Part shown: in pieces, positions 23,401-46,717 of the stretch
Numbering within the stretch: the stretch's first letter is position 1
How the letters are laid out: every line of letters begins with the position of its first letter
Notes under the pieces: generated by a model
The model's database searches: none
What the model was told of the DNA's origin: nothing
The model's input: the letters and a program-made list of their open reading frames with translations, nothing else
Position numbers and translations under genes: made by a program
IMG/VR virus record: IMGVR_UViG_3300009182_000063
Span: 571-64,570 of that record
Reading direction: 5' to 3' (one strand)
DNA: 64,000 nucleotides
Origin: a virus
Taxonomy: Duplodnaviria > Caudoviricetes

Positions 23401-26400
23401 CTTGAGAGAAGAATTACTAATCTTGAATACTACACTTCGTTGTCTTTATTAGAACAACAAACTGAAGCATTGACAATTACTGACTCAACAACTGGTTTAA
23501 ATCGTTTCAAGAATGGTTTTGTTGTAGACAATTTCAGTGGACATAATGTTGGTGATGTTACCAGCGTAGATTATTACTGTTCTATTGATATGGGTGCAAA
23601 TGAGTTGCGTGCGTTTTATTCAATGAAACATATCGGATTGATTGAAAAAGTTTCAACTGATGCTGCTCGTTCTTCTTCAAATTATAAACTAACTGGTGAG
23701 TTGATTACTCTTCCAATAATTGCAACACCTGCTCTTATTACACAACCATATGCATCTCGTTTGGAAAATATTAATCCATTCGCTATTTTTACTTTCCTTG
23801 GTCAAGTTAATTTAAACCCACCAAATGATACTTGGTTTGAAACTGATCGTCGTCCAGATATTGTTCAAAACCAAGAAGGCGATTTCAATACTATCGCAAC
23901 ACTGGCTGAAAAAGCAGGTGTTCTTGGAACTGTTTGGAACGCATGGCAAACTCAATGGACAGGCGAACCAGTAACATCTACTCAAACATATGTCGGTGAC
24001 CAACGTGGACTTGGAACTGTAGGTTGGAGAGATGGTCTCGCTGCCAATACTCCTGCTGATCAATTGAATGCAATGTTCGGAGATGTTCAAGGACAAGGTT
24101 GGGCACATCGTGTTGTTACGGCACAAACTTCAGCTGTTACTTCTGGTCTATCAAGAACTGGTATTAATACTCAGGTCGTTGCTAAAATTGACACACAGTT
24201 GGTTGAAGATCGTGTTCTTTCAACTGCTGTTATTCCTTATATTCGTTCAAGAAATATTCTTATTCAAGCAACAGGATTAAAACCAAACACAACATTCTAC
24301 CCATTCTTTGATAATGTTAATGTTGCTGCCTACTGTACTCCTGCAACTAAGATTACCTTTACTGGTGCTGTAAATTTTGATTCTACATCAAATGTTGGAG
24401 CCAATACAACTCAAACTGCTCGTTTAATTAATGGTGATTCTCAGAGTTGTTTAAGTAGCGGAGATGTAATAACTGGTGCTTCTTCTGGAGCAACTGCTAT
24501 TTGTGTTGGATCTGAACAGGTATTAAATACAAGCGGTGTTGTATCAACAAGAAACCTTTATGTTGTTAACATCAAGGGAACTTTTACAAATGGTGAATCA
24601 ATTTCTGGTTCAATCAGTGGAGTAACTGCAGTAATTTCTGCAATTGAAACTACTCAGACTGCTGGCGGTTCTCTTGGAACTGATGTCAACGGTAAAGTTC
24701 AATTATTGTTTGCTGTTCCAAATAGCGACACCGCAAGATTCCGTATTGGTCAGCGTCAATTCACTCTTACAGACTCTACAACTAATGATGCAACTTTTAC
24801 TTCTAGAGGTAATGGACAGTATTTTGCTCAAGGTGTTCTTGAAACTAAACAAGCGACATATATGTCTACCAGAAATGGTATCCTTGTTCAGAATCAAGTT
24901 GACCCACAGTTTAAAACAATCACACAAACATCATCTCGTGTAGTTTCTGATACTGGTTGGTATGATCCACTTGCTCAAACCTTTATGGTAAATTCAAGAG
25001 GTGGTGCATTCTTGACAGCAGTTGATTTATTCTTTGCTACCAAGGATAGAAGTATTCCTGTTCATATTGAGATTAGAGAAGTTGTTAATGGTAATCCAGG
25101 AAAAACAATTCTACCCTTCTCTCAGGTTGCATTGAATCCTGAGCAGGTAAATATTTCAACAAGTACTGTTACACTTCCTGATGGAACTATCGTTCCAAGT
25201 TATGACACAGCAACTACCTTTACTTTCCCATCTCCTGTTTATGTTCAGGATGCCACTGAGTATGCTTTAGTTGTTGCTTCTGATTCTAATGGATATAAAA
25301 CATGGATCTCTAACATGGGAGATGCTATTCCAGGATCAAACAGAACTATTTCTGACCAACCATATGCTGGTGTGTTATTTAAATCGCAGAACGGATCTAC
25401 TTGGACTGCTGATCAAGATCAAGACTTGAAGTTTACAATTTATCGTGCTCAGTTTGATGTAAATGCAGTGGGAACTGTTCAATTTGTTAATACTATTATT
25501 CCAAAGGTAACTCTTGATAAGGATCCCTTTGAGACAAATATTGGATCAGCTTTTGTTCGTGTCTTCCATAGAAACCATGGACTTTCAACAAACTCATATG
25601 TAACAATTTCTAACTCTGATACTACAAAGATTTATGGATCTACTCCAACATCTGGAACTATAACATGTTCAACAGGTAGTGTAACTGTTACTGGTTCGTC
25701 AACTGTGTTTAATACAGATATTGGAACAACGACAGTTGGCCAAGGTGCTGTTCTTTATACTAATGAAGCAACTCCAAGATATATTGGTGTAGTTGCATCA
25801 GTAGCAAGTAATACTTCTTTAACTTTAGTTGCAAATGCTGCGATCACTTTGAGTTCAGCAACTACTTTTACAATCGCACCTTCGATTAATGGTATACCAG
25901 TTACAGAGATTTATAAGTTATCAACTGTAACAACAGTGACTGATAACGATTCTTATGTATTGACAACAACTACAACTGGTAAGAAATTTGGTTACGCAGG
26001 TGGTCAAACTGCAACTGCCATTGGAAATTATCAGTATAATGCTTTACAACCAATCGCGCAAGTTCAAACTTTTGCTGATACAAATGCTTTGTTCTCTCTT
26101 AAGACAACAACTGGTAAATCAATAAATGGTTCAGAAACTCCGTATACACTAGACTCTAGTTTCTCTGGTGCAGTTGCAAATGATACCAATTATTTCTCAG
26201 CACCAAGAGTTGTTGCATCTCAACAGAATGAAAACACTTTAATGAGTGGAAATAAATCAGTTACCATTCAATGTCAAATGACAACTACGAATGATGCGGT
26301 TTCTCCAGTTCTTGATTCTAAAAGAATGGGACTTGTTGCTATTAGTAATACATTGAACGCACCAAGCGAAACAGTTATTAATTACGGTAGTTTGGATCAA

Positions 26401-27039
26401 ATTACTTTGACTTCAGCAAATACTAATATTGCTTTTACAAGCACTGGTATAGCATCAGCTGATGGTCCAACTAAAGCACTATTGGCAACTCTACAGGTTG
26501 GTAAATATATTACCATTTCTGGTTCTGGTACTGCCACAAACAACGGAACATATTTAATTACTGGTGTTGCTTCTGATGGCGCAACAGTGACAATCGCTAA
26601 CACAAATGGTTCGACAATTGTTTCTGCAGGAACTGCAATTACCATAGTGTTTAGAAACTCTTACATTGATGAGATTTCTCCGTCGGGTAGCTCTACTCAC
26701 AGTAAGTACGTTACTAAACAGATTAGTTTGGCAACACCAGCTACTTCAATGAAGATTCGTCTTTCAATAAATTCACCAACAGCATCTAATGTTGCAGTTT
26801 ATTATAGAACTTCTCCAGTTGGATCTAAGAACTCTTATGGAACAATTAATTATATTCTTGCAACTCAAGATGGTGTGTTCCCTAAAGTTCAATATGGTGA
26901 TAATTCCTTCAAAGATGTTGACTATACAATAACTGGTTTGACTGCTTTTGATTCCTTTAATGTTAAGTTGGTATTTACTTCAACCAACACATCGGAAGTT
27001 ACTAGAGTTAAAGACCTTAGAGTTATAGCAACAACATAA
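20479..27039 (+). CDS. Large VrlC-like (DUF4815-type) virion structural protein, 2186 aa
   Basis: PYNDDY...FYRILFRP..AVQARELTQLQ, APGAHRY, LARRTYDESGNY, RYTMRDIG.LE.RI.NLEYYTSLSLLE, WYDPLAQTF, LFKSQNGSTW. Confidence 0.85.
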   Translation: MLDFNTEPYNDDYSEDSKFYRILFRPSFAVQARELTQLQTILQNQISRQGGALYKQGSMVIPGQVSIDTNAKYVKLVAVYSGASTESYITSTASTGKFITGSSGVQAQIIKVVSATTSDPTTIYVRYRSSDTTAGTQKVFADGEVITFDDGSGTTQAAASSATGTGSLATVQRGVYYVNGFFVLCADAHSAADQTIDLDKYTNTPSYRVGLSILETTITPEDDTTLLDNAQTSYNYAAPGAHRYHIDLVLTKLPLTSVDDQNFIELLKVSSGTIIRIVNKTEYSELEKELARRTYDESGNYTVRPFNVDVREARNNSRGTWTTTPTSYLIGDVILYSGKTYTAKNTATSASSVPPTHTTGTVFDGSGNTGVKWEYTPYPVYNRGISLTGSDDQLAIALDPGKAYVQGHEIEKVSTEYVYVNKCRDSSHQVQVINAFLPATVGNYVLVNSVNAAPFVDTFVQVALYNQFTTTGVASPVPGTGVGTQVGTARVRFIELDSGTQYKIGLFDIQMFSGYDFKRNVKSFYYNNPAGGAVVDFSADIAPVATRLVGAATASASTTITGTGTSFQTDLLVGDYISLGGTYRRVTAIASQNSITVDQSTSVTGVTIDRVSTQILEPENESLIFRLPYYAIKSLRSSDSTNRTTYYAYQKFTATAGATGSGGTGYCTLTVSAASGTMAPSAQTNNYQLVDSTTGSTISYVSASISGSSATFTLSNTYASRAFTVIGTVVKTLSSSTEKTKTLTTATVTFTTQAAAQALALSLGKADGYRVTSVLMDAGSFASAAGTYTLDISDRYNFNDGQTSSFYGLAKLELKPSYTVPSGPVQVTFEYFTHGIGDYFSVNSYADVDYKKIPFFNSISLRDSIDFRPRVDDTGVTFSGSGGSTSLIPKRGQEIQTDFIYYLARTDKIAIDVNGKFFQIAGNPSLNPGDPPEPKQGMVLYTLNLEPYTFSTTSNSVAVTKVENKRYTMRDIGTLERRITNLEYYTSLSLLEQQTEALTITDSTTGLNRFKNGFVVDNFSGHNVGDVTSVDYYCSIDMGANELRAFYSMKHIGLIEKVSTDAARSSSNYKLTGELITLPIIATPALITQPYASRLENINPFAIFTFLGQVNLNPPNDTWFETDRRPDIVQNQEGDFNTIATLAEKAGVLGTVWNAWQTQWTGEPVTSTQTYVGDQRGLGTVGWRDGLAANTPADQLNAMFGDVQGQGWAHRVVTAQTSAVTSGLSRTGINTQVVAKIDTQLVEDRVLSTAVIPYIRSRNILIQATGLKPNTTFYPFFDNVNVAAYCTPATKITFTGAVNFDSTSNVGANTTQTARLINGDSQSCLSSGDVITGASSGATAICVGSEQVLNTSGVVSTRNLYVVNIKGTFTNGESISGSISGVTAVISAIETTQTAGGSLGTDVNGKVQLLFAVPNSDTARFRIGQRQFTLTDSTTNDATFTSRGNGQYFAQGVLETKQATYMSTRNGILVQNQVDPQFKTITQTSSRVVSDTGWYDPLAQTFMVNSRGGAFLTAVDLFFATKDRSIPVHIEIREVVNGNPGKTILPFSQVALNPEQVNISTSTVTLPDGTIVPSYDTATTFTFPSPVYVQDATEYALVVASDSNGYKTWISNMGDAIPGSNRTISDQPYAGVLFKSQNGSTWTADQDQDLKFTIYRAQFDVNAVGTVQFVNTIIPKVTLDKDPFETNIGSAFVRVFHRNHGLSTNSYVTISNSDTTKIYGSTPTSGTITCSTGSVTVTGSSTVFNTDIGTTTVGQGAVLYTNEATPRYIGVVASVASNTSLTLVANAAITLSSATTFTIAPSINGIPVTEIYKLSTVTTVTDNDSYVLTTTTTGKKFGYAGGQTATAIGNYQYNALQPIAQVQTFADTNALFSLKTTTGKSINGSETPYTLDSSFSGAVANDTNYFSAPRVVASQQNENTLMSGNKSVTIQCQMTTTNDAVSPVLDSKRMGLVAISNTLNAPSETVINYGSLDQITLTSANTNIAFTSTGIASADGPTKALLATLQVGKYITISGSGTATNNGTYLITGVASDGATVTIANTNGSTIVSAGTAITIVFRNSYIDEISPSGSSTHSKYVTKQISLATPATSMKIRLSINSPTASNVAVYYRTSPVGSKNSYGTINYILATQDGVFPKVQYGDNSFKDVDYTITGLTAFDSFNVKLVFTSTNTSEVTRVKDLRVIATT

Positions 27040-27269
27040 TGGAAAATATATTACAGGTTGAAGGAAATCCATCTCTAGTACGAGACTTGGCATCTAACGC
27101 AATTATTAATACGAATATATCAGAGTTTGAAACCTATCTTAGAAATAGAGATATTATGTCTGCTAGAGTTAATCAATTACAGACTCAGAACGAAAAGATA
27201 AATAGACTTGAAAATGATATCAACGACATAAAAACTATGTTACAACTGTTGATCAATAAGGAAAATTAA
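27039..27269 (+). CDS. Conserved small coiled-coil protein following the VrlC-like gene
   Basis: VEGNPSLVRD..SNAIINTN, INRLENDINDIKTMLQLL; coupled by TAATG overlaps. Confidence 0.7.
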   Translation: MENILQVEGNPSLVRDLASNAIINTNISEFETYLRNRDIMSARVNQLQTQNEKINRLENDINDIKTMLQLLINKEN

Positions 27270-28567
27270 TGGCATCTATCACGCTACGCACTGTTAAAGG
27301 AAGTCCTCTTACCAATCAAGAGATGGACGACAACCTTAATAATATCAATGCTCAATTAAATCTTACTTTACCTGCAGCGTCATATACCGCAGCCGATGTG
27401 CTAACGAAACTTAAAACAGTTGACGGAGTTGGTTCTGGTTTAGATGCAGATTTGTTGGATGGTTATAATTCAGCAACAACTGCAACGGCAAACACAATTG
27501 TTCTTAGAGATGCCAATACAGATATTGCCGCAGGAGTGGTTCGTGCCACAACAGTAATTGCCAATGTAACAGGTAATGTCACAGGTAATGTAACAGGAAC
27601 TCTTACTGGAAATGCAACCAATGTTTCTGGCACTGTTGCTATTAATAATGGTGGCACTGGTGGTAGTGATGCAACTTCTGCTCGCTCAAACCTTGGACTT
27701 GGATCAATGGCAACTCAGAATAATTCTGGTGTTACTATTGTCGGTGGAACTATTACTGGTTTAACAACTGCATTACCAATTGCATCTGGCGGTACAGGCG
27801 CAACATCAGCAACTGCAGTAAGAACAAACCTTGGTCTTGCCATTGGTACTGATGTTCAGCCTTTCTCAAACGAATTAACAGGTATCGCAGCAGCAACTAA
27901 CACTGGTATCTATGTTCGTATTGGTGCTGCTTCAGTTACACAAAGATCAGTAGTTACTAATGGAAATGGTATAGTTGTTACAAATGGCAGCGGAGTCGGT
28001 GGTAATATTTCAGTTGACTTACCTAGTTCTGGTTCAGTAACACTTTCATCTCTACAACTTAATGCTGGTTTAACTGTTGGAACAACAGGAACTTTCTCTG
28101 GCGCTGTTACACTTCCATCTATTTCAAAATCTGGTGGTAATGGTTCAGGTGATATTGGCCAAGACGGAAATCGTTTCGGAACAATTTTTGGAACAGCTTC
28201 TACTGCTAAGTATGCCGACTTGGCAGAAAAATATCTTGCCGACGATACCTATGAAACAGGAACTGTTATTGTAGTTGGTGGCGAAAAAGAAGTTACTCAA
28301 TCTTTCTTTGGAGACAAAGCAATCGGTGTTGTTTCTGCTGCTCCTGCTTACTGTATGAATGATGAGTTGAAAGACGGAACAAAGATAGCACTAAAAGGTC
28401 GTGTCCCAGTTAAAGTTGTTGGAGCAATTACCAAAGGCAAAAGTATTACTGCTGGTGATAATGGAACTGCTGTTCAATGTGAACATCACTTCTATGGAGC
28501 GTTTGGCGTGGCTCTTGAATCCAGCGATACTGAAACTGTTAAATTAATTGAATGTGTGATTTTATAA
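27269..28567 (+). CDS. Tail fibre protein with C-terminal autocleaving chaperone (Peptidase G2-like)
   Basis: KGSPLTNQEMDDN anchor, GSGLDADLLDG, GGTG repeats, AKYADLAEKY...IGVVS..PAY.MN...IALKGRVPVKV. Confidence 0.75.
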   Translation: MASITLRTVKGSPLTNQEMDDNLNNINAQLNLTLPAASYTAADVLTKLKTVDGVGSGLDADLLDGYNSATTATANTIVLRDANTDIAAGVVRATTVIANVTGNVTGNVTGTLTGNATNVSGTVAINNGGTGGSDATSARSNLGLGSMATQNNSGVTIVGGTITGLTTALPIASGGTGATSATAVRTNLGLAIGTDVQPFSNELTGIAAATNTGIYVRIGAASVTQRSVVTNGNGIVVTNGSGVGGNISVDLPSSGSVTLSSLQLNAGLTVGTTGTFSGAVTLPSISKSGGNGSGDIGQDGNRFGTIFGTASTAKYADLAEKYLADDTYETGTVIVVGGEKEVTQSFFGDKAIGVVSAAPAYCMNDELKDGTKIALKGRVPVKVVGAITKGKSITAGDNGTAVQCEHHFYGAFGVALESSDTETVKLIECVIL

Positions 28568-28576
28568 TGTTTTTTG

Positions 28577-29653
28577 ATGCATGTACAGCCGATAACATTC
28601 TATAAGACAGCAGCTGTCTCTAGTATACTCAAACCAAAAGATTTAGTAGTCTATCTAAAGACAACTGAAACTTGCCAACTCAACTGCAAACACTGTTTCA
28701 CTAATGGTGTCAACGGCAGAAAAGTTTACTTCAATCCCCAAGCAACAATAGACTGGTTTCACAAACTCCATGCGGAATGTGAAACATTTGGATCAGGCGC
28801 AATTATATTTCATGGTGGAGAACCTTTTCTTGCACCACTTGAAGATATGTATAAAGTTTGGGAAGAAGTATCACCCCTTTGGCCAAATCTTGGTTGGTCA
28901 TGTTCAACGAATCTCTGTTTCGCACTGACAGAGGAACATTTAAAATTCTTCTCAACTGTATTAAAGAATGGTTTCTGCACCAGCTGGGACAAGAACATTC
29001 GTTTTGAAAATGATAAACAAGAAGCACTTTGGAGAAAGAACCTTAGAACTCTTGTTGATCTTGGTCACAATATAACTTTGAACATTAGTCTAAACAAAGA
29101 CTTGATGAAAATGGATACTCTTGAGTTGGTTACTTGGTTAAACACTCTTGGTGTAAACTATGTTCAGTTTGAGCGACTTACCCATGATGGAAGCGCAAAT
29201 ATAAACACTGACATCTTTCCCGAGAATAAAGAGATAGATGATTGGTTTCTTAGAATGCATGAAACTTATCAATCAGTAAAGCCAGAGTACCATGATGTTT
29301 TGTTGGAAGGTGTATATTCCTCTGTCCTAAAAGGTGTTCATGGTGGTGTTCGTTGCAGAGACTGTGAGCAAAAGATCTTTACAATCAATGGCGATGGAAC
29401 AATATCAGGTTGCCCAAATTCCGCTGTTGGTAACAGTTTTGGGGATATTGGGCAGTCTATAAATAGTTTATTAAGTGCTCCAGGAAGAATAAATAATATT
29501 ACATGTGAGGTAGCTCGCGATCCTCGTTGTTACACCTGTAATGTTTTTGACATCTGTAATAGCGACTGTCACCAATTGAGTTGGCAAGGCGATGTTTGTG
29601 CAGCACCAAGAACACTAATGCAAAGGTTAAAACATGACAACAGCTGGAACTAA
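28577..29653 (+). CDS. Radical SAM / SPASM-domain enzyme 1
   Basis: CQLNCKHC (CxxxCxxC), FHGGEP, Cys-rich C-terminus CRDC...GCPN...CYTCNVFDICNSDC...C. Confidence 0.9.
   Translation: MHVQPITFYKTAAVSSILKPKDLVVYLKTTETCQLNCKHCFTNGVNGRKVYFNPQATIDWFHKLHAECETFGSGAIIFHGGEPFLAPLEDMYKVWEEVSPLWPNLGWSCSTNLCFALTEEHLKFFSTVLKNGFCTSWDKNIRFENDKQEALWRKNLRTLVDLGHNITLNISLNKDLMKMDTLELVTWLNTLGVNYVQFERLTHDGSANINTDIFPENKEIDDWFLRMHETYQSVKPEYHDVLLEGVYSSVLKGVHGGVRCRDCEQKIFTINGDGTISGCPNSAVGNSFGDIGQSINSLLSAPGRINNITCEVARDPRCYTCNVFDICNSDCHQLSWQGDVCAAPRTLMQRLKHDNSWN
29458..29465 (+). promoter_or_regulatory. Exact late promoter TATAAATA inside rSAM gene 1, upstream of the CHSN-repeat gene
   Basis: Exact consensus 168 nt upstream of the 29634 ATG; an 8-mer in AT-rich DNA can occur by chance. 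Confidence 0.45.
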
Positions 29654-30152
29654 TATAACAAAGGCAAACATCGTTGCCTCAATGGAAGCAGTTAGAAATA
29701 CCTACAACTCAGGTATTGTTTGGGGTAGCAATGCTCAACCATTTCAATCAGATATTACTGGTGGATCCACTTCTGGATATTCTACTCAATCTTTTGCTGG
29801 TGATATTTCCGACACAAACATAACTGCATCTACAATAACAAATAACTTTAGATCCTATGCTACCCTGCTATCGAGGATTCGTAATGTTCGTTTATTGAAG
29901 TGGTATCAGATTCAAGGCGATGTAAGAAATAGATTAGATTACGATGCCACAAATCTTACAAACTTAAATTCAAATTACCAGTGGAATGCTGATAACAGCG
30001 TTAACTCTGGAGAAACTGTTAATGCTGGAAATCTTGATGCCTTTGTAAACTATCTGTCAGCTAACATTAGTTCATACAGACAAACAACAGTGACAGTTGA
30101 AGAATTCTACTGCCATAGTAACTGCCATAGTAACTGCCACGGAAGTATTTGA
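29634..30152 (+). CDS. 172-aa protein with C-terminal Cys/His repeat (YCHSNCHSNCHGSI); candidate rSAM substrate
   Basis: T/N/S-rich body with no Cys or His until the last 13 residues; overlaps rSAM gene 1; AAGG RBS-like element upstream. Confidence 0.75.
   Translation: MTTAGTNITKANIVASMEAVRNTYNSGIVWGSNAQPFQSDITGGSTSGYSTQSFAGDISDTNITASTITNNFRSYATLLSRIRNVRLLKWYQIQGDVRNRLDYDATNLTNLNSNYQWNADNSVNSGETVNAGNLDAFVNYLSANISSYRQTTVTVEEFYCHSNCHSNCHGSI
30109..30140 (+). repeat. 12-bp tandem repeat ACTGCCATAGTA x2.6 encoding the CHSN units
   Basis: ACTGCCATAGTA ACTGCCATAGTA ACTGCCAC. Confidence 0.9.
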
Positions 30153-30913
30153 TGTATACTGTACCATTTGATTCTGATACTTTGAAGAAAATTATAGTTG
30201 GAGAAATAACTTCTCCTGATATTGATTATGTTCAATCAAAGATCAAGGGTAAAAACTTCATAACATATCTCAGCAATCTCAAGTATGAGAATCTTAATAT
30301 CGATTTCTCAGATGTATCGCTTGATGAAAGAATAGAATTAGTTTCTGAGTATATTAGACACAATTCAACTTGTCACATTGAGCAGTTGGAAGCAACAGTT
30401 ATTAAAGCACTGTTTCACTACAGAGGATATGAGTTATCTCTGGTTGACCAATCAGAAGATGACAAACCATTTTTACACAAGTCTATATTATCGAATGATG
30501 AAATACAAGAGTTCGTTAAGATTGATATCAAATTAATTAAACAACTTGCAGATTTACTTGATGGTGTTCTTTTGTATGCAATTAAAAATCTAAACGATTA
30601 CAAAGAAGAACTTGGCGATTTTGTAACGACCAATGTTATTGTAGAGAAACAAGAAGTTGGAAAAACTTTTGTAAACTTCTTTGATAATCCAACATTTAAT
30701 TGTCACTACTATGGAGCGATCCCTAAATTTGATGACATCAAGTATTTTGACCATTACTTTGACAGACCAATTTACTCTGGTAGAACATTGATTAGTTACA
30801 TAACAGTACCACAGTGTGTTATATTTCCACTATTGAAAATGATTATAGATGTAAAATTTACACCTGAACAATTAAACTCAATATTCAAAGAAGCCGATGC
30901 TACACTTATTTAA
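30152..30913 (+). CDS. Hypothetical protein of the rSAM island (253 aa)
   Basis: ATG overlaps the TGA of the CHSN gene; no motif recognised. Confidence 0.75.
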   Translation: MYTVPFDSDTLKKIIVGEITSPDIDYVQSKIKGKNFITYLSNLKYENLNIDFSDVSLDERIELVSEYIRHNSTCHIEQLEATVIKALFHYRGYELSLVDQSEDDKPFLHKSILSNDEIQEFVKIDIKLIKQLADLLDGVLLYAIKNLNDYKEELGDFVTTNVIVEKQEVGKTFVNFFDNPTFNCHYYGAIPKFDDIKYFDHYFDRPIYSGRTLISYITVPQCVIFPLLKMIIDVKFTPEQLNSIFKEADATLI

Positions 30914-31763
30914 TTCTTGCTATGTATATCCGTACATATTGTTTGATCCAACAAATAATTATTTGGTGGTAGGTGAAGACCATCTGAATCATCAGATAAT
31001 TTCAAATAGTTTTTTCTACAATAATTCTACACCAAGAGAACCTTTTGCCAGATTAGATTCTTTTGAAACCTTTGCTGGATGTAACTTGCTAGATGCAACT
31101 GTCAACAACAAAGATAGATTTTTGATTTATACCGATGATGATAATTTCATTAAATTCTTCACGGCAAAAATGAAAACTCAAGTGGCAAACTTGAGCGAAG
31201 ACTTCTTTCTTACAACGGCAAAGTTGTTTGCAGTTAAATTAAAAACAAGGGCAAAGTTACTTGCAACTGATGACGCAAAACTAGAATTAAATAATCTTGC
31301 CGATAAATTCTTGGCACTAACTTCAATACCAGAAGTTGATGCTTTCTCACTCACACGTGCATGGGTCACTGCCAATGCTGGTATTGAGTGGAAATTTGCC
31401 AATGGTATTCTTGATAATATTCATGACATTGTTAATCGTAATGTGTACTCGTACTTTGATGAAGCAAAGGCACTTTATCTTTCCAGAAAACAAGGTGGCT
31501 GGGCTCTTGAAGAAACCAATCAGAAATATAAAACTTGTGCATCTATTGAAGATCTTTATTCGCAGATGCGTAAAGAGATTATGATATTCACGGATTCTCT
31601 AATTTTACAGTACTACTACGATAGAGAAATGTTTAAGGATCCAAAGTTCTTACTACTACTTGCATCCAATAAAGACATGGGTGATAAGATTGACCTTTGG
31701 TTGATTAGATGGTTTATGAAAATGTCTCAAGAACAAATTAAAGAATTGGACATAGTAGCATGA
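30897..31763 (+). CDS. Hypothetical protein of the rSAM island (288 aa)
   Basis: Overlapping operon gene; N-terminus MLHLFNSCY and IYTDDDNF resemble the next gene. Confidence 0.75.
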   Translation: MLHLFNSCYVYPYILFDPTNNYLVVGEDHLNHQIISNSFFYNNSTPREPFARLDSFETFAGCNLLDATVNNKDRFLIYTDDDNFIKFFTAKMKTQVANLSEDFFLTTAKLFAVKLKTRAKLLATDDAKLELNNLADKFLALTSIPEVDAFSLTRAWVTANAGIEWKFANGILDNIHDIVNRNVYSYFDEAKALYLSRKQGGWALEETNQKYKTCASIEDLYSQMRKEIMIFTDSLILQYYYDREMFKDPKFLLLLASNKDMGDKIDLWLIRWFMKMSQEQIKELDIVA

Positions 31764-32713
31764 TATATCTTTTCGATAACTGTTATCTGTCAACAAAAAA
31801 CATAATAGTTGAAACTGCCAAGCAAGTATGGATCGGTTCTTTTGAGAATTTTGATGAGAAGTCTCTTGACATTTACAAAACATATACCGATATTACTCCA
31901 AAGAAATTAGACGACTTGTTTGCAGATATTCATAAGAATTTCTCAGATAAGAAAACTATTATATACTGTGATGTTGATTATTTCCAGTATGTATATTCTA
32001 TTTTCTTCAATGGTATTTTCAGTAAGGCAACTGTTCTTGAGTTGTATCAATACGATGCTCTCAAGGAAAACTATGGTCTTGCCGATACATATGGTCTGGT
32101 TGTAACTGGGCTCAGAGATATTAATCGTGTTACTTTGCCAGAAGAATTAAATTGGACCAGTGGTTCTTCAAAGTTCTCTGCTGATCTTGATACTCAAAGA
32201 GTTGAGATAGCATTTGCCAATGCGATTCAAGGTAACAAAAAGTCTTTGGCATTTTGTGTTGACAGAATTGATCAAATGTATGATGGCACTCCAGGATTCT
32301 GGTCTAAGTTTGCAGAGCAAACTCTCCCTGGAATTATGTCCGATGAAGAATATACTATCGAGCATTTATTGGACACCGAGTATATGGAAACATACCTTGA
32401 TCAATTTAAGGTAAACGAGTTCCTTCCAAACAAGATTGTTCCAATCATCAATGATAAGTTTGGATATGATTATCATAAGCATTTCTTCACTGTTTTAAAT
32501 AATGATGAAAACTATGAGGAATTCTTAAAACCTATACTAAAGATGAGCAAGAAACAGTTTATCGAGAAACGAATCCTAGATCCAAAGATTGCGGTAAATT
32601 ACAACTTCATCTTTCCAAACATTTCCAACTTTGATTCTGTGAATCCAATTTTCTGGAATGCGATATTAAAGAACCAAGACAATATAGAATGGCTCAAAAA
32701 GTATAAAGTGTAA
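31760..32713 (+). CDS. Hypothetical protein of the rSAM island (317 aa), probable distant paralogue of the preceding gene
   Basis: ATGA overlap; MIYLFDNCY and IYCDVDYF. Confidence 0.75.
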   Translation: MIYLFDNCYLSTKNIIVETAKQVWIGSFENFDEKSLDIYKTYTDITPKKLDDLFADIHKNFSDKKTIIYCDVDYFQYVYSIFFNGIFSKATVLELYQYDALKENYGLADTYGLVVTGLRDINRVTLPEELNWTSGSSKFSADLDTQRVEIAFANAIQGNKKSLAFCVDRIDQMYDGTPGFWSKFAEQTLPGIMSDEEYTIEHLLDTEYMETYLDQFKVNEFLPNKIVPIINDKFGYDYHKHFFTVLNNDENYEEFLKPILKMSKKQFIEKRILDPKIAVNYNFIFPNISNFDSVNPIFWNAILKNQDNIEWLKKYKV

Positions 32714-33765
32714 TGGAATTAATAATTAAACCAACTGAACTTTGTAATTTTAAATGTACCTTTTGCTCATCAACTAAACTTGTAGAAGATAGTGCCAGCA
32801 CTCTTGACTTACAGCATGTTTTTGATTTTCTAAAGAGATTTCCAAATACAAATACAATAATTGTCAATGGTGGAGATCCACTAATGATGAAACCAGAGTA
32901 TTACTTTAATATTCTTGCGTACATTGAAGAACACAAACTCCCAACAACTCTTGGATTCACAACTAACCTTTGGGCATTCTACAAGAAACCAGAGATGTGG
33001 ACTCCGCTGTTTAGACACCCAAGAGTTGGTGTTACTACAAGTTTTCAGTATGGGTTCGGTCGCAAGATTAATGAAAACAGAGTTTATACTGAAGCCGACT
33101 TTTGGAAAGTCAGTGATTTGTTTCTCAAAGAAGTTGGTTATCGTCCAGGGTTTATTGCTGTTATCTCTGAAGAGAATGAACATCATGCAATTAAACATGT
33201 TGAACTTGCCAAGAAAATGGATGTTCAGTGTAAGTTAAACTATGCCATGGCTTCTGGCGAACAGGATAAACCATATCGCCTAAGTAAGATATATGAAGCA
33301 TACCTAGAAGTGTATGAGAGAGACCTTTGGCACTGGGAATTTAACACAAAGCAGATGATGAGTCGTTTGAATAACATTGCCAATGTTTGTCCTCAAGCAA
33401 GAAACTGCGATGATCATATAAGAGCATTGAACCCAGAGGGAGATTACTACTCCTGTGGTTCTATGGGTGATGACAGAGAATATCCAATTAACTTTGTAAA
33501 GGAAGTTAAAGAAGGTGGTTTCTCTACTCCACTTCAAGATGCTCCAGAATTATATTCGCTGAAAGATGAGTGTATTGGTTGCCCAATGTTTGCGATTTGT
33601 AATGGGTGTAAGAAAACAATTAAAGATTTAAAGAAACATGATATGGTTGAAGAGCACTGCTCACATATGAAGCAGTTGGCTCCAAGAATTATTAAGATAA
33701 ACAGTGAAATAGATTATGTCGAAGCAACTCAAAGAATCCATCAAATTCTCGTTCCTGAATATTGA
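32713..33765 (+). CDS. Radical SAM / SPASM-domain enzyme 2
   Basis: IKPTELCNFKCTFC, NGGDPL, C-terminal CPQARNC...YSCG...CIGCPMFAICNGC...C. Confidence 0.9.
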   Translation: MELIIKPTELCNFKCTFCSSTKLVEDSASTLDLQHVFDFLKRFPNTNTIIVNGGDPLMMKPEYYFNILAYIEEHKLPTTLGFTTNLWAFYKKPEMWTPLFRHPRVGVTTSFQYGFGRKINENRVYTEADFWKVSDLFLKEVGYRPGFIAVISEENEHHAIKHVELAKKMDVQCKLNYAMASGEQDKPYRLSKIYEAYLEVYERDLWHWEFNTKQMMSRLNNIANVCPQARNCDDHIRALNPEGDYYSCGSMGDDREYPINFVKEVKEGGFSTPLQDAPELYSLKDECIGCPMFAICNGCKKTIKDLKKHDMVEEHCSHMKQLAPRIIKINSEIDYVEATQRIHQILVPEY

Positions 33766-35608
33766 TCTTCGTGTACCGATTCAAAGGTTACCAATTAATT
33801 GGTTGAACTTTAAGAATTACTACACGAAACATGGTAAATATTCAGACCGAGTAGTTTGGCAGAAACCAATTCTCAATCTAGAAGGTTGGACATTTGAACA
33901 GATTGTGACTTACTATGACGAGCAGGATTCTGACATCTATGCTTTCTCTAGTTATCTCTGGAGTCACATGGCTATTATGGCAGTTGCTCAAGAATTAAAA
34001 AAGCGTAATCCAAACAGAATTATTTTACTTGGTGGTCCACATCTTAATATTACTCATAATAATCTAGGATGGTTCATTAAGAATAAGTTTATCGATGCGA
34101 TTTGCGAACCTACAAGTTATGGTGAGTGGTTCATTACTGATATTTTGAATCAGTTTGTAGAGGGTGATATAAACTACAAAGAAGTTTCCTTTGCGATCTA
34201 TAAAAGTGGACGTGGCACAAGTCCTAATAAGATTGGGTTTGACTTTCCTGCAAGTTTAATTGCTGGCAATGAAGATATACTGTTTGAGTGCAAGAACATA
34301 GCACTTGACAGAAATGTACCTTTGGTTTTACCAATTGAGTTAACTCGTGGTTGTCCCTATGAGTGTGTCTTTTGCGAGTGGGGTGGTGGTATTGGTGGTA
34401 AGGTTATTCGTAAACCACTAGATATGATCAAGGAAGATCTAGACTGGATACCGCAGATCGGTATTGAGCAAGTTCAAATTCTTGATGCAAATTACGGAAT
34501 ATATCTGGAAGATGAGGATGTTTCCAAATATATAGAAACGATCAAAGATTATTCAGGTTTACCAAACCATGTAGAGATATATGGAATGACAAAGTCCAAG
34601 CAAGAAAGACGCTGGGCAACCATTGAACCACTGGCACGAGCAAAGGTAGTTGAGCGATACAAGTTAAGTTTACAAACACTGAACAATGAAGTGTTAAAGA
34701 ATATTAAACGAACAGATATTCCTCGCGAAAAAGACTTTGAGTTTGCTCAGTATCTGTTTGATACCTATGGTATTCGTTCTGACTTTGAATTTATGATGGG
34801 ACTGCCTGGATATACCAGACAAGACTTCTATGATGAAGTAGATATACAGTACGAGTATGGTTATAACCTTGAGAGATATCTTTGGTTATTCCTACCAGAC
34901 TCACCTGCCTACTCACCTGACTATATCAAAGAACATAATATTAAAACTGAAAAGATATGTATCGGTAAGTCAAGAATGAATAGTTATGCTTTTGATGACG
35001 TAAATCTTTTCGGTGATTATCATATTTCCTCTGATCCAGCTTTTACCTCAGATGTTGAGTTTGTTGTTGAAGCCAATGGGTTTACAAGAAAAGACTTTAC
35101 TGAGTTCTTTTTTATGAATTACTGGATCGTGAACAATATTGTTGAAGTTACCTTTACCGATGATATTATAAAGCATAATGTAAATACTGGTAAACTTAAA
35201 ACTCCATCTTTGGTGTTTAAGAAAATCTACGAAAAGATAAGTGAGCCAACAGAAAATAAATATGTGTTGGCAATGCAAGACTTAAATGCTCAGATGTATG
35301 ATTTAATTGCTGGAAACAGAAAAGAAGTTGCAGACTACAAAGAATTTAATCTACCTAATACAACAGTATCAGTGGATTTTAAATATATTTACAAGTCTTG
35401 TATATATGTTTTTGAACAGGAATATATTGATTTTCTTTGTTCAGTCGGTGAGGAGTTGGGACTTGAGATTCCAAACGATATCGTTGAACAATTTACAACT
35501 GTTCTAAATAAGTACAGAGAATCTATTTCTCCAAAGTATGATAAGACCTATCAGATAAGAACCTACTACGAAAATTTTATTAATGAGAAATATACAACAG
35601 TTACTTGA
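33716..35608 (+). CDS. Cobalamin-binding (class B-type) radical SAM enzyme
   Basis: N-terminal B12-binding-like region (FSSYLWS, ILLGGPH), ELTRGCPYECVFCEWG, DANYG, LKNIKR, FMMGLPG. Confidence 0.82.
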   Translation: MSKQLKESIKFSFLNIDLRVPIQRLPINWLNFKNYYTKHGKYSDRVVWQKPILNLEGWTFEQIVTYYDEQDSDIYAFSSYLWSHMAIMAVAQELKKRNPNRIILLGGPHLNITHNNLGWFIKNKFIDAICEPTSYGEWFITDILNQFVEGDINYKEVSFAIYKSGRGTSPNKIGFDFPASLIAGNEDILFECKNIALDRNVPLVLPIELTRGCPYECVFCEWGGGIGGKVIRKPLDMIKEDLDWIPQIGIEQVQILDANYGIYLEDEDVSKYIETIKDYSGLPNHVEIYGMTKSKQERRWATIEPLARAKVVERYKLSLQTLNNEVLKNIKRTDIPREKDFEFAQYLFDTYGIRSDFEFMMGLPGYTRQDFYDEVDIQYEYGYNLERYLWLFLPDSPAYSPDYIKEHNIKTEKICIGKSRMNSYAFDDVNLFGDYHISSDPAFTSDVEFVVEANGFTRKDFTEFFFMNYWIVNNIVEVTFTDDIIKHNVNTGKLKTPSLVFKKIYEKISEPTENKYVLAMQDLNAQMYDLIAGNRKEVADYKEFNLPNTTVSVDFKYIYKSCIYVFEQEYIDFLCSVGEELGLEIPNDIVEQFTTVLNKYRESISPKYDKTYQIRTYYENFINEKYTTVT

Positions 35609-36296
35609 ACACGTAAATAGAATTCCCCATCTGCCATTAAATTTTAACTATGACGCAGAAAGAATTGAACGTGAAGTTCGTGAGTGTCCCTTTCCGCTTA
35701 TGCCCTATGAAGCAACCATGCAAGAAAATCATGGACATGAAAAGAGTAAGTGGAACAACTTGTCACTGTTCAGCTACAATGGTGAAATCTTTTGCGATCG
35801 TTTAGAAGGTGCTGGTCCAGGAGAACTAGAAAGAATTTGGGGCAAAGTTCAACAGACTGGATTGTCTGAGTATATGCCCTATACCTATGAGGTTCTTGAA
35901 CACCTTGGTGGTGGTAAAGCACTGGCAAGGATTGAAGAAATACTTCCTGGAACTGTGATGGGTTGGCATAATCATGTGTTTGAATTGTTTCATCCAGAAA
36001 CAATGATGATTGTTCAGTTGCCCATAACTATACCTCAAAAATTTAAATACTCTGTGATGGCAAACAAAGATTACAGAGGAATGGACTTTGGACTTTATAC
36101 ACCAAAGGTATATGAGTCTACTTACAATCCAGGAACACCAGTTATTTTTAATGCGTATCACTATCATAATGTGTTTAACTTTGACAAAACAGGTGTTCGT
36201 TTAACGATTCGTTTCTTTGCTGATTTAAGAGATGATAGAGTATATGATTTAGTACAGGATGCAGTGAATAATTATAAGGGAGATTACATTGAATAA
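35583..36296 (+). CDS. Asp/Asn beta-hydroxylase-like cupin oxygenase 1
   Basis: WNNLSL, ARIEEILPG..MGWHNH, VIFNAYHYHNVFN...RLTI. Confidence 0.65.
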   Translation: MRNIQQLLEHVNRIPHLPLNFNYDAERIEREVRECPFPLMPYEATMQENHGHEKSKWNNLSLFSYNGEIFCDRLEGAGPGELERIWGKVQQTGLSEYMPYTYEVLEHLGGGKALARIEEILPGTVMGWHNHVFELFHPETMMIVQLPITIPQKFKYSVMANKDYRGMDFGLYTPKVYESTYNPGTPVIFNAYHYHNVFNFDKTGVRLTIRFFADLRDDRVYDLVQDAVNNYKGDYIE

Positions 36297-36987
36297 TATT
36301 GCACATCTTCCTCTTGGTATAGATTTTGATCATAAAAAAATTCTAACAGAGATAGAGAATTTACCTCATTCGCTACGCAAATATCGTAGTGCACTATCAA
36401 ATGGTAAAACCATGGAAATTCATGATGAGGAAAGATGGGATTCGTTGGCACTTTATAGCATTGACGGAAAATCTGAATCTAATCCTGCAGAACCATGGAC
36501 AGGGGACTTTATTAAAACTGAAGCACTTTATATGTGTCCTTACTTGGACAGTGTTTTACACTCTGTCGGTGGTGGTAAATTACTTGGAAGAATTGAGATA
36601 TTTAACAAGAATGGATCTGCTGGCTGGCACAGTCATGTTATGGAAGCGGGACAACCAGAGTGGATCTCTGTTTGGAATCTTCCACTTATTATGCCCAAGG
36701 AATCTAAGTTTAGTGTGCTTTCCTACATGGATTACAGAGGTTCAGATTACAACAAACCGATTAAAATATATGAGCAGTGGTATGAACCTGGAAAGATGTA
36801 CTGTTTAAACAGTTATCACTATCATAATGCCTTTAATTATGGTGATATGTCAATGATTATGATTCGATTCTATGTTGATACAAGAGACGAAAAAGTTAAA
36901 GAAATATTACAAAAAGCCATGGATAACTACACTGGAGAGTACATTCAGTCTTATGAAGAGTATATAATCTCCACTGCAGTTACCTAA
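36289..36987 (+). CDS. Asp/Asn beta-hydroxylase-like cupin oxygenase 2 (TTG start, paralogue of the preceding gene)
   Basis: AGGGAG RBS before TTG; HLPL..D..I, GGGK.L.RIE, GWHSH, DYRG.D, NSYHYHNAFN, IRF..D.RD all shared with oxygenase 1. Confidence 0.65.
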   Translation: MNNIAHLPLGIDFDHKKILTEIENLPHSLRKYRSALSNGKTMEIHDEERWDSLALYSIDGKSESNPAEPWTGDFIKTEALYMCPYLDSVLHSVGGGKLLGRIEIFNKNGSAGWHSHVMEAGQPEWISVWNLPLIMPKESKFSVLSYMDYRGSDYNKPIKIYEQWYEPGKMYCLNSYHYHNAFNYGDMSMIMIRFYVDTRDEKVKEILQKAMDNYTGEYIQSYEEYIISTAVT

Positions 36988-37018: not shown

Positions 37019-37645
37019 ATGACCACAGCACTCACTACCAGAGTTTCCACCAACGCAACATTTGCTCCCACAGTAAAGGGATCGCCGATTTCAAGCGCAG
37101 AAATTGATAACAACTTTATCAGTTTGGCCACAAACAAACTAGAAATTGCCAATAACCTTGCTGATTTACAGGATCCACCAACAGCAGCTACTAACCTTAG
37201 TGTTGGAACTTCTTCTCAGGCGCAGTTTGGATCGCTTGGTGTTGGTACTACAGGTTCTGCAACAACTGGTGAGATTAGAGCAACCAATCAAATTACTTCT
37301 TACTACTCTGATGCTCGTTTAAAAACAAACATCAAAACAATCCCCAATGCTTTAGAAAAAGTAATGCAAATTACAGGTGTTACCTACACAGGTAACAAAC
37401 TGGCAGAATCTTTTGGGTTTGATCCAAACCAAAAACAAGTCGGTGTTCTTTCTCACGAAATTGAGGCAGTACTGCCTGAAGCAGTGAAGTCGGCACCCTT
37501 TGATATTATGCTTTTTGAACACACTGAGATGTCAAAATCTGGTCAAAATTTTAAAACTGTTCAATACGAGAAGCTGGTTCCTCTTCTTATAGAGGCAATA
37601 AAAGAACTAAATATAGAAGTAAAGAAATTAAAGGAGATTAAATAA
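37019..37645 (+). CDS. Short fibre protein with C-terminal Peptidase S74-type intramolecular chaperone
   Basis: TVKGSPISSAEIDNNF anchor; YYSDARLKTNI...VGVLSHEIEAVLPEAV...VQYEKLVPLLIEAIKEL. Confidence 0.8.
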   Translation: MTTALTTRVSTNATFAPTVKGSPISSAEIDNNFISLATNKLEIANNLADLQDPPTAATNLSVGTSSQAQFGSLGVGTTGSATTGEIRATNQITSYYSDARLKTNIKTIPNALEKVMQITGVTYTGNKLAESFGFDPNQKQVGVLSHEIEAVLPEAVKSAPFDIMLFEHTEMSKSGQNFKTVQYEKLVPLLIEAIKELNIEVKKLKEIK

Positions 37646-38190: not shown

Positions 38191-39480
38191 ATGGCTTACC
38201 TTGGTAATACACCAACTTCGCAAAGTTTTACTTCCAATATAGATTACTACAGTGGAACAGGTTCAGCTACAGCGTTTACACTGTCACGTTCAGTGGCCAC
38301 GATCAATGATATTTTGGTTGTTGTTGATAACGTGGTTCAACGACCAACTGATGCTTATACACTGAGCGGAAGTGTTATCACCTTTACTTCTGCTCCACTG
38401 AGCGGAACTAACAATATCTATGTTCGTTATATGGCAACAACTACTCAGGTTGTTGCTCCTGCCGCAAACAGCGTTTCCTATTCTTCTTTGACCTCAGATA
38501 TGCAAAGTAATATCTATGGGTTCAAGAATCGTATTATGAATGGTGGTATGGGTATTTGGCAAAGAGGTACTAGTTTTACTGTCGCTGGTTCTACTTTTGC
38601 ATATACTGCAGATCGCTGGGTTGTATATTCTGCAAATAGTTCAACTACGGTATCAAGAAATTCAAGCATTCCAACTGGTACTGGATTTCCATATAGCGCA
38701 CAAGTACAGCGCACTGCTTCAAACACAGGAACAAGTGCTGTATTTTTCCAACAAATAATTGAATCAAATAATATGCTTGATCTAGCAGGTCAAACAATAA
38801 CATTAACATTCTGGGCAAAAGCAGGTGCCAATTTTTCATCAGGAAGCACTGGTGTATACATTAATACAGGAACTGTTGCTGATCAAGGAACCGCAGCTTC
38901 TCTTGGTAGTTGGACTGGATACACTTCTGCTGCTACATATACTTTTACGCCAACAACAACTTGGACAAAATATACTGTAACTGCTAATTTAAGTTCAATT
39001 GCTTTAGAATTATCAACATTATTTTTCTATAACCCAACAGGTACTGCTGGAGCAGATGATTCTCTTTATATCACTGGTCTTCAGTTAGAAAAAGGCGCAA
39101 CAGCAACTAACTTTGATTACAGACCTTATGGTGCTGAAAAACTTTTGTGTATGAGATATTATGAAAAAACATATCAAGATGATGAAGCACCTAATAGAGT
39201 TAATCCAAATACAGCTAATGCATTAACTGGTGTTGCAACAAGTACTACTAACATTGCTTGTCATTGGAAATTTTCAGTACCTAAGAGAACATCAGCAACA
39301 GTACAATATTATTCTTGGAATGGAACTGGTGCTGGTAAGTGGGCAAATTTAAGTAATACTGATGTTACAGTTTCAACACCGTGGGGTGCTGGTTATACTG
39401 GATTTGCTAGACTCGATAGTACGGGTCTTACTGCTGGTGCTTTTTATTGGGGCTTTGCGGCTGCAGATGCGGAGTTATAA
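38191..39480 (+). CDS. Fibre/receptor-binding protein, AEL family copy 1
   Basis: N-terminal G.GS.TAFTL domain; KNRIMNG..IWQRG core; QLEKG..AT.FDYRPYG.E...C.RYY; ends DAEL. Confidence 0.7.
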   Translation: MAYLGNTPTSQSFTSNIDYYSGTGSATAFTLSRSVATINDILVVVDNVVQRPTDAYTLSGSVITFTSAPLSGTNNIYVRYMATTTQVVAPAANSVSYSSLTSDMQSNIYGFKNRIMNGGMGIWQRGTSFTVAGSTFAYTADRWVVYSANSSTTVSRNSSIPTGTGFPYSAQVQRTASNTGTSAVFFQQIIESNNMLDLAGQTITLTFWAKAGANFSSGSTGVYINTGTVADQGTAASLGSWTGYTSAATYTFTPTTTWTKYTVTANLSSIALELSTLFFYNPTGTAGADDSLYITGLQLEKGATATNFDYRPYGAEKLLCMRYYEKTYQDDEAPNRVNPNTANALTGVATSTTNIACHWKFSVPKRTSATVQYYSWNGTGAGKWANLSNTDVTVSTPWGAGYTGFARLDSTGLTAGAFYWGFAAADAEL

Positions 39481-39482
39481 AA

Positions 39483-39644
39483 ATGTATAAATTATCAACA
39501 CCTTGGAATGGTAAGTCTCTAGTTATTATTAGACTTAGTGACAATGCTTGTATTCCTATTGACAATAATAACAGAGATTATAGGGAATACCTTAAATGGC
39601 TTGCTGAAGGTAATACACCACTCCCAGCAGATACGGAGAAATAA
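39483..39644 (+). CDS. Small partner protein of AEL copy 1
   Basis: MYKL...IP.D..NRDY.EYLKW...GNTPLPAD; SD lies in the upstream gene end. Confidence 0.7.
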   Translation: MYKLSTPWNGKSLVIIRLSDNACIPIDNNNRDYREYLKWLAEGNTPLPADTEK

Positions 39645-41011: not shown

Positions 41012-41012
41012 T

Positions 41013-42038: not shown

Positions 42039-42039
42039 A

Positions 42040-42195: not shown

Positions 42196-42223
42196 ATACT
42201 AAAGAAACCTAAAGAGACTATCA

Positions 42224-46716: not shown

Positions 46717-46717
46717 A

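Follow-up and report, generated by a model that had tools for sequence, protein, structure and literature searches.

The nearest characterised relative of the gene cassette analysed here is the HXS system (HxsA/B/C/D; Li et al., Nat Commun 2026), in which HxsB and HxsC mature the HxS-repeat protein HxsA (PMC13128918). The cassette occupies about positions 28577 to 36987 of the window, by which we mean the whole 64,000-nucleotide stretch of DNA that was analysed, almost an entire virus record (64.6 kb) of a freshwater T4-like phage. Its nine genes encode radical S-adenosylmethionine (radical-SAM) enzymes and a 172-residue carrier, or precursor, protein (29634..30152, + strand) that ends YCHSNCHSNCHGSI and consists of a folded alpha/beta domain and a C-terminal tail. 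The tail (CHSNCHSNCHGSI, 30111..30149, + strand) contains three C-H-x-S/N units and is the proposed site of modification. The cassette is a new and widespread variant of radical-SAM protein or peptide maturation that is shared by phages and predatory bacteria, and the region in the window is a pared-down form of a large, previously undescribed cassette. An earlier note on this DNA knew of no characterised comparable system in a T4-like phage, and we likewise found none in the literature; nor was any published description of the CHxS motif or of the cassette found in a search of full-text literature.

Like HXS, the cassette combines two radical-SAM enzymes, small accessory partners and a whole protein with tandem His-x-Ser units, present in the carrier as three H-x-S/N units, each preceded by Cys. 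The HXS product is a modified protein and not a cleaved peptide, as we propose for the cassette, and SPASM-type radical-SAM enzyme 2 of the cassette weakly matches HxsC while an orthologue of its SPASM enzyme 1 weakly matches HxsB. In contrast to HXS, the units of the cassette begin with an invariant Cys and lie at the extreme C-terminus, where there are three or, rarely, two or four. The cassette has no match to the HxsA or HxsD models and no peptidoglycan-binding domain, and it adds the protein families unkA, f9, f3 and f11, a B12-type radical-SAM enzyme and cupin or 2-oxoglutarate (2OG) oxygenases. The hosts of HXS are 99.7% Pseudomonadota (PMC13128918), whereas those of the cassette are phages and Bdellovibrionota. 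Membership of HXS was rejected, with scores of 30.7 against 267.9 bits for HxsC (enzyme 2) and 33.8 against 370 for HxsB (enzyme 1 orthologue), and with no HxsA match.

The triceptide maturases (YhhB, FxsB, GrrM, HaaB, HtkB) are also of the SPASM type, and their repeated aromatic-x-x units, with Ser or Asn in third place, resemble those of the cassette. HtkB forms a HisC2-LysC-beta link, so that His is a known ring donor (PMC11499958), and the cassette tail has a natural His-to-Phe variant. Unlike the triceptide substrates, which are short peptides, that proposed for the cassette is a folded protein, and its conserved Cys has no counterpart there; membership of the cyclophane-synthase families YhhB, FxsB, GrrM and AmcB was rejected at 18-35 bits against 310-445. 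The best full-length alignments are with the Cys-directed SPASM maturases (anSME, the ranthipeptide enzyme PapB, QhpD), which offer solved anSME chains and, like the cassette, Cys-containing repeats. QhpD acting on QhpC is a precedent for the cross-linking of a protein subunit rather than a peptide. In contrast, the cassette has no sulfatase C/S-x-P-x-R motif and no equivalent of the Asp/Glu acceptor found at +4 in PapA, and its scores to these maturases are far below cut-offs. Proteusin pathways (polytheonamide-like), which make peptides built by the ribosome and altered after translation (RiPPs), apply radical-SAM enzymes, B12 C-methyltransferases and Fe/2OG hydroxylases to one large-leader precursor; the cassette differs in having neither a nitrile-hydratase-like or Nif11 leader nor a protease, and its core is ~13-16 residues. 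A classical RiPP cluster was set aside because no leader protease, recognition element or exporter was found with the profile libraries, and a phage DNA-hypermodification cluster because the nucleobase kinase and transferase Pfam families are absent and the enzymes are SPASM-type. Radical-SAM genes are mentioned at the level of annotation in reports on jumbo phages (PMC5468394, PMC8066314, PMC8541153), and one marine T4-like genome has 12 of them (PMC5332604).

The carrier family and its gene cassette

The C-terminal repeat motif defines the carrier family. A profile built from 47 tail proteins retrieved 342 clusters at the 90% identity level and, at 50%, 867 representatives; none has a name. 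All of the 120 homologues listed end CHxxCHxxCH followed by xS[IL] or xSRxRR, and among the best 150 of the 867 representatives 146 have at least two tandem C-terminal CHxx units, 143 have exactly three, and 100 have no Cys outside the tail. Ser occupies position 4 of the three units in 134, 112 and 130 of the 144 tails, and Asn comes next. Rare tails that lack one Cys retain H-x-S/N (…CHSSCHSSHSS…, CHSNHANTCH…), and one natural tail has Phe in place of His (CHYSCFTSSCHFS); such variants suit an aromatic-x-Ser cross-link unit better than a metal site. In the AlphaFold2 model of the carrier (predicted local distance difference test, pLDDT, 80.9; predicted template-modelling score, pTM, 0.75) the N-terminal domain is confident and the tail disordered. 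The domain, of ~150 residues, is conserved and includes an invariant Arg. Foldseek found no PDB hit to it at E<=1e-3 (OmpA-like rows, with template-modelling scores of 0.12-0.15, are insignificant), a VIA search gave a best Z of 4.8 and IglD/TssK-like rows at 4.2-4.7, under the useful level, and the viral structure library returned the carrier's own family alone. The carrier and three relatives match no NCBIfam family, and the window carrier no Pfam family; a signal peptide is absent from phage and predator carrier proteins alike. No longer, fused forms of the carrier turned up, which is weak evidence.

The enzymes are found with this protein in many viruses. Enzyme 2 has relatives at 49.7-60.6% identity in 15 phage records, from the Ralstonia/Burkholderia RSL2-RSF1-FLC group, Agrobacterium Atu_ph07, Sinorhizobium Phosso and Pseudomonas pPa_SNUABM_DT01. 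Three phages that were inspected share a common order (cupin, SPASM enzyme, small protein, unknown proteins, more radical-SAM enzymes, 2OG oxygenases), and their small proteins end CHTSCHTSCHSARGRR, CHSSCHSSCHGSRGRR and CHSSCHASCHNSRSRR. Viral contigs gave 330 relatives of both SPASM enzymes (alignment A1), the best 80 of which were examined, and open reading frames (ORFs) were clustered from 83 loci and the window, 84 loci in total. A tail ORF stands beside the SPASM genes in 67 of the 84; among the 17 in which none was called, 16 are cut by the contig end on the relevant side and RSF1 shows the ORF on inspection. The earlier note had proposed a modification pathway around a Cys/His-repeat protein, and this is supported, as enzyme clusters lacking such a protein were sought and no uncut one was found. 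Family unkA is present in all 67 tail-bearing loci and the B12-type family in 42.

The usual layout begins with a giant VrlC-like protein, a 76-residue protein and a fibre protein, continues with f8, SPASM enzyme 1, the tail protein, unkA, f9 and a further SPASM enzyme, and ends with a B12 radical-SAM enzyme, 2OG oxygenases, SPASM enzyme 2, f3, f6 and a 2OG oxygenase. Family f8 is a JmjC-like cupin with an invariant H-x-D...H, f3 is another radical-SAM type, and f11 has CxxxCxxC and four C-terminal Cys; some loci contain extra paralogues, with up to about ten radical-SAM genes per locus. The window belongs to a clade of eight loci that has been trimmed, being without f8, f3 and f6 and missing 4-5 families of most relatives; it has two remote f9 paralogues, the B12 enzyme, clade-specific cupins and a tail ending in Ile/Leu instead of RxRR. 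Among the 59 loci with RxRR tails, f8 is found in 54, f3 in 57 and f6 in 53, and in the eight with I/L tails these families are absent and the cupins are present throughout. Given the families missing from its clade, the window is unlikely to encode the complete pathway that the earlier note saw in it, and the description of the cassette as an oddity of a T4-like phage was too narrow, since it also occurs in jumbo phages (RSL2/RSF1, Atu_ph07, DT01) and on predatory-bacterial chromosomes. Precursor arrangements diverge at several loci (L055:585-1354; the far end of L020-L025; L101, L111 and L128). Some lineages have two tandem short precursors of ~125-140 residues with the same tail (126 and 128 residues at one locus), and in others the precursor is on the opposite strand, ~10 kb from the main SPASM pair, past five paralogous f11 genes.

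In prokaryotes, a degenerate DNA pattern for the RxRR-type tail, run on contigs of one genome per species, matched 47 places. At least two cassette families accompany it at 37 of these, the tail protein stands alone at 2, and the remaining 8 have no cassette family and look like chance. Bdellovibrionota account for 27 of the 39 tail-positive places. Each of five such genomes inspected (2.5-3.7 Mb) has one copy, either as a compact 11-13-kb cluster or, in two of the five, as a looser region. The flanking genes in these five genomes encode serine dehydratase, YchF, PRPP synthetase, PBP1, SMC and CarB, and other bacterial loci are flanked by NusB, NrdR, GreA, LolA and LspA; such housekeeping flanks indicate a locus that is chromosomal and not prophage-like. 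Nine proteins of 334-476 residues with a Peptidase_S74 chaperone domain are encoded at eight loci, 0-2.3 kb away from the cassette. A type-IV-pilin-like N-terminus was read by eye in eight of the nine, and Pfam N_methyl matched in one. Such pilin-S74 hybrids are encoded at L137:9765-11006 (-), L143:14655-15692 (-), L088:5955-7142 (-), L097:448-1575 (-) and L129:284-1525 (+), among others, and their genes are usually followed by one for a conserved ~200-residue protein ending ...GRHWVKVK; homology of this protein to the phage fibre C-terminus was rejected at an hhalign probability of 5%. A description of a pilin-fibre hybrid was not found in the literature. Bdellovibrio employs phage-like S74 fibres for prey invasion, and the passages of that report on the fibres are silent on the cassette locus and on radical-SAM enzymes (PMC10769870).

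Proposed maturation of the carrier and competing explanations

We put at about 50% the probability that the region represents a slimmed-down form of a widespread protein-maturation system whose enzymes modify the carrier tail and whose product serves the fibre or attack apparatus. The carrier, of ~170-290 residues with three terminal C-H-x-S/N units, would be modified in the cytoplasm by SPASM enzymes acting on its unstructured tail. That the tail is their substrate is probable, on account of the strict linkage, the terminal and disordered position of the motif and the relatives of the enzymes. The likeliest chemistry would be small cross-links within the units, as His-x-Ser-type aromatic-to-C-beta cyclophanes and/or Cys thioethers. 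Resemblance of the H-x-S/N units, with their natural His-to-Phe variant, to the aromatic-x-x units found in triceptides and to HxsA's HxS units suggests, tentatively, links of the cyclophane type. The invariant Cys could contribute additional thioethers, or a metal site formed later, and after cross-linking the B12-type enzyme would methylate and the two cupins oxidise. The unkA and f9-like proteins, which have no catalytic signature, may hold or present the substrate. The product would stay on the carrier protein, which would work alongside the fibre or attack apparatus, either associated with the virion or as part of assembly. Profile scans of the nine proteins agree with the earlier note that a peptidase and an exporter are absent, and as none was found the product probably remains a modified protein.

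The late-promoter motif of the carrier gene and the position of the cassette in a host-recognition module make a role in the fibre or attack apparatus the likeliest one. The octamer TATAAATA, which we take to be that of T4 late promoters, lies within the enzyme 1 gene (29458..29465, + strand), 176 nucleotides 5' of the carrier start. It is found at most 200 nucleotides 5' of 44 of 62 carrier genes, and 5' of other cassette genes in 0 of 67 cases for unkA, 0 of 69 for f3, 0 of 49 for the B12 enzyme and 14 of 220 for SPASM enzymes, a strong statistical signal that makes it a candidate promoter. A gene of the upstream fibre family directly flanks the cassette in 39 of 66 loci, and the VrlC-like giant family, a frequent upstream neighbour, is within 28 of the 67 tail-bearing loci. 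In pelagimyophages, radical-SAM cassettes are located in the host-recognition cluster, with tail-fibre genes downstream of VrlC (PMC7029224). The S74 neighbours in predators are a further reason for such a role. Of the modified virion protein favoured in the earlier note, the genomic side stands, in the promoter motif and the conserved fibre neighbour, and proteomic evidence was not seen; the proposal is plausible, and a fibre or virion role for the carrier is a possibility that we hold with some reserve.

A number of observations weigh against maturation of the carrier for a fibre or attack role. In 27 of 66 viral loci, belonging to several lineages, the cassette has no recognisable adjacent fibre gene. 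A conserved I-N-S peptide is encoded by the octamer at -176 as well, and the exact octamer is missing from the nearest relatives of the window. All scores to curated families are far under cut-offs, and the profile libraries revealed neither a RiPP recognition element nor a protease or exporter among the nine window proteins or 27 proteins of relatives. The correlation of tail type with enzyme set derives from a single clade, and as such represents one evolutionary event, and the RSF1 cassette is interrupted by dihydrofolate reductase and HNH genes. Radical-SAM enzymes require anoxic, reduced conditions, which is odd for an oxic freshwater host. The RefSeq records of RSF1 and Atu_ph07 label the carrier homologue 'hypothetical' and its neighbours 'virion structural protein', and in FLC6 the cassette genes are not among the 16 proteins that, in the account given there, 'seemed to be' structural (PMC8066314). 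For Atu_ph07 the published text goes no further than placing one virion-protein cluster at 'CDS 170-215' (PMC6102473), of which 170 is the RefSeq number of the carrier homologue. A predicted complex of enzyme 1, unkA, three 4Fe-4S clusters and the carrier scored 0.02 in both runs, against a mark of 0.32, and so speaks neither for nor against the proposal.

The enzyme mix, with several radical-SAM enzymes, a B12 radical-SAM enzyme and many 2OG or cupin oxygenases, recalls heavily tailored RiPP pathways, and would suit a free RiPP-like product or peptide cofactor, for which the N-terminal domain would be an oversized leader and the modified tail of 13-16 residues would be cleaved off. A host or unrecognised protease would make the cut, and the freed tail, released at lysis or by the predator, would be a metallophore, toxin or signal. 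The Trp-halogenase-like enzyme of some relatives (1.1e-72), the locus with tandem precursors of 126 and 128 residues and the fitness of three Cys, three His and a cationic RGRR end for metal or membrane binding are all compatible with this, as is the motif before the carrier gene, RiPP loci typically giving the precursor a dedicated strong promoter. We nevertheless regard a free product as unlikely, as the cassette families show no protease, exporter or recognition element, the phage and predator proteins lack a signal peptide, and a conserved, confidently folded 150-residue domain with an invariant Arg exceeds the needs of a leader.

Less probable again is a device for phage exclusion, through which a matured protein would block DNA entry by rival phages, as defence in the predators and superinfection exclusion in the phages. 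There is a model for this in HXS, where paired radical-SAM enzymes mature an HxS-repeat effector that halts DNA entry (PMC13128918); the H-x-S/N units, the often basic RGRR end, the weak HxsB and HxsC matches and the chromosomal location of the cassette in bacteria are in keeping with it. However, those matches fall far short of the HXS models (33.8 against 370 and 30.7 against 267.9 bits), the carrier is unmatched by NCBIfam models, that of HxsA among them, neither a peptidoglycan-binding domain nor a signal peptide was found, PADLOC gives weak viperin-core matches alone, and the window tail is without the basic end. A late-promoter motif and a place in the fibre module are also unlike known exclusion genes, which are early, as with imm and sp of T4. 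The invariance of Cys and His would also fit a metal or iron-sulfur site in an accessory redox or scaffold protein that serves the radical-SAM enzymes, their real substrate lying elsewhere, in a metabolite, DNA or a fibre protein. A reductant is required by many radical-SAM enzymes, dihydrofolate reductase genes lie within the RSF1 cassette, and marine T4-like genomes rich in radical-SAM genes carry Fe-S assembly genes (PMC5332604). Against such a site, conservation of Ser/Asn at position 4 is as high as the Cys and His positions permit, variants drop a Cys or exchange His for Phe with the x-S spacing intact, the tail lies at the terminus and is disordered in the model, and a promoter of its own suggests stoichiometric and not catalytic amounts of the carrier. 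As to DNA as the substrate, the kinase or transferase of hypermodification was not seen in Pfam scans, and known phage DNA-modifying radical-SAM enzymes are photolyase-like and not SPASM-type (PMC8989533). We consider a metal or redox site the most improbable of these explanations, by a little.

Maturation of the carrier tail would, in its boldest form, amount to an 'invader kit' common to phages and predatory Bdellovibrionota, a small carrier protein whose radical-SAM-matured, triply cross-linked Cys/His tail would be incorporated in, or required for assembling, the S74-type fibres or pili with which they recognise and breach Gram-negative cells. We think this extension speculative and rather unlikely; if true, it would be the first case of radical-SAM enzymes modifying an appendage of a virion or predator, and would link viral and bacterial predation at the molecular level. 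For enzymology, the cassette offers a large family with a sharp candidate substrate motif, together with two confident predicted folds, those of the carrier domain and unkA, for which no relative has been solved. To phage biology it would explain the uninterpreted 'radical SAM cassettes' that several jumbo phages have and that aquatic T4-like phages have in their host-recognition clusters, and it suggests that proteins of the virion or of its assembly may be cross-linked chemically. In the study of predators, attention is drawn to a locus of Bdellovibrionota, so far unstudied, next to pilin-like S74 proteins.

Proteins of the cassette in the window

The nine genes are on the same strand and tightly overlapping, as the earlier note had described, with overlaps of 1 to 50 nucleotides at each junction. 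Its count of three radical-SAM enzymes is confirmed, with labels softer than it assumed: enzyme 2 and the B12-type enzyme pass the Pfam Radical_SAM cut-off, and enzyme 1 and the B12-binding domain fall below theirs. SPASM enzyme 1 (359 residues; 28574..29653, + strand; TTG start, with an ATG at 28577; phrog_1802, 2.1e-55) scores 18.9 bits against 29.5, and its gene is always immediately 5' of the tail-protein gene in the arrangement seen here. Residues C34/C38/C41, C261, C264, C280, C319, C322, C328, C332 and C342 are invariant across 38 orthologues, and its best NCBIfam match is DynA, at 32.9 bits against a cut-off of 450. SPASM enzyme 2 (350 residues; 32713..33765, + strand; phrog_1802, 5.5e-55) reaches 36.2 bits against the same 29.5. 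Both orthologue groups have an invariant CxxxCxxC and a C-terminal multi-Cys auxiliary-cluster motif; the SPASM model TIGR04085 gives 21.6 and 23.4 bits in the window proteins (<27) and 35.6 in an orthologue. Full-length alignments are obtained with the maturases DynA, anSME, PapB and CbpB and weak matches with HxsB/HxsC, a CXXX-repeat maturase and the YhhB/FxsB cyclophane synthases, and the closest solved chains are 8vpo, anSME and ChlB. With scores so far below curated cut-offs, the chemistry is unreadable from homology. QueE, NrdG and MoaA, which the earlier note had named as families whose kinship would count against its proposal, align over the N-terminal core only.

The class B (B12-binding-type) radical-SAM enzyme (630 residues; 33716..35608, + strand) has a Radical_SAM score of 46.9 bits and a B12-binding domain at 25.2 bits, below the cut-off of 32.1. 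It matches the KedN5 subfamily at 5.6e-35, but at 120.6 bits against 700, and has no match among isolated phages; it is probably a methyltransferase. Cupin-like metalloprotein 1 (237 residues; 35583..36296, + strand) has invariant W-H-x-H-x2-E and H-Y-H-N motifs and found no match in a PDB sequence search. Cupin-like metalloprotein 2 (232 residues; 36289..36987, + strand) is its paralogue, as the earlier note had recognised, at 38% identity, and belongs to a family that among the loci is confined to the window's clade, in all eight members. The same note called the pair Asp/Asn hydroxylases, which is a sub-threshold label: cupin 1 scores 20.6 bits against a cut-off of 22.6 for Asp_Arg_Hydrox (PF05118), the Pfam scan of cupin 2 is empty, and among the cupin homologues listed PF05118 falls on 1 of 120. 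A cupin-type motif, H-x-H-x2-E ... H-x-H-N, is invariant.

The three proteins that had been taken for unknowns are better described as a member of the conserved unkA family and two paralogues of the f9 family. unkA (254 residues; 30149..30913, + strand; phrog_20767, 1.9e-29) has a confident AlphaFold2 model (pLDDT 89.2, pTM 0.87) for which the fold search gave no solved relative (best structural Z 3.1), and no His, Asp, Cys, Glu or Lys is invariant in the family. Its labelling as 'Upx-like' by the protein atlas (score 0.93, 165 shared features) was rejected, as it has no PADLOC or Pfam support. unkB (288 residues; 30897..31763, + strand) and unkC (317 residues; 31760..32713, + strand) are remote f9 paralogues, at hhalign probabilities of 98.5 and, over 300 columns, 97.6 respectively. 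Neither matches a Pfam, NCBIfam or PHROG family, and for unkC the protein atlas gave nothing usable.

Genomic surroundings and related loci

The window also encodes baseplate, tube and fibre genes. Its gp6-like protein is ~40% identical to the counterparts in pelagi- and methylophilales-myophages, and its DNA occurs in freshwater and lake metagenome runs; no near-identical DNA to the region was found among isolated phages. Upstream lies the gene of the giant VrlC-like structural protein (2186 residues; 20479..27039, + strand; phrog_358, E=0, full length). The placing of the cassette between two fibre genes in the earlier note is upheld: immediately 5' is a fibre-like protein (432 residues; 27269..28567, + strand), whose C-terminal 130 residues match tail-fibre PHROGs at 1e-13 to 1e-14, and immediately 3' a short fibre protein (37019..37645, + strand) with a Peptidase_S74 intramolecular chaperone domain (1.6e-14) and matches to many tail-fibre PHROGs. 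No terminator-like site was detected at either border by a consensus scan, again in agreement with that note, though the scan was uninformative overall (13 sites against 9.8 expected). Further downstream, at least seven tail-fibre genes, paralogues of one another (phrog_4492, C-termini ...AEL), form an array at positions 38191-54532. The two that were inspected (39447-39644, 40817-41011) are followed by ORFs of ~65 residues with a Y..YL.W...GN.P.PAD.E motif, possibly fibre-assembly chaperones.

Across the window the count of TATAAATA is at chance level, as is a sigma-70 scan. Exact copies at 12485-12492, 48552-48559 and 5837-5844 (-) stand just 5' of ORF starts at 12499, 48583 and 5831 (-), positions consistent with T4-type late promoters. 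Three metatranscriptome libraries contain short contigs that match both cassette and fibre genes without error, from which strand and level cannot be read and for which DNA carry-over is possible. In the RSF1 cassette, two dihydrofolate-reductase genes and an HNH endonuclease gene lie mid-cassette (L002:8861-9977), which may be a mobile insertion or may reflect a functional link to folate or methyl metabolism. The cassettes of L034 (13118-14458), L039, L043, L068 and L073 include a gene resembling flavin-dependent tryptophan halogenases (Pfam, 1.1e-72) and one for an AAA_28 protein, a hint of further tailoring even though Trp is missing from the tail. Finally, a family of 110-130-residue proteins (f15; for example L063:14235-14624) is encoded 3' of many cassettes, in 27 loci, before genes for proteins of 80 and ~2000 residues; 19 of its 27 genes have the late-promoter motif, and the group may be another structural module.

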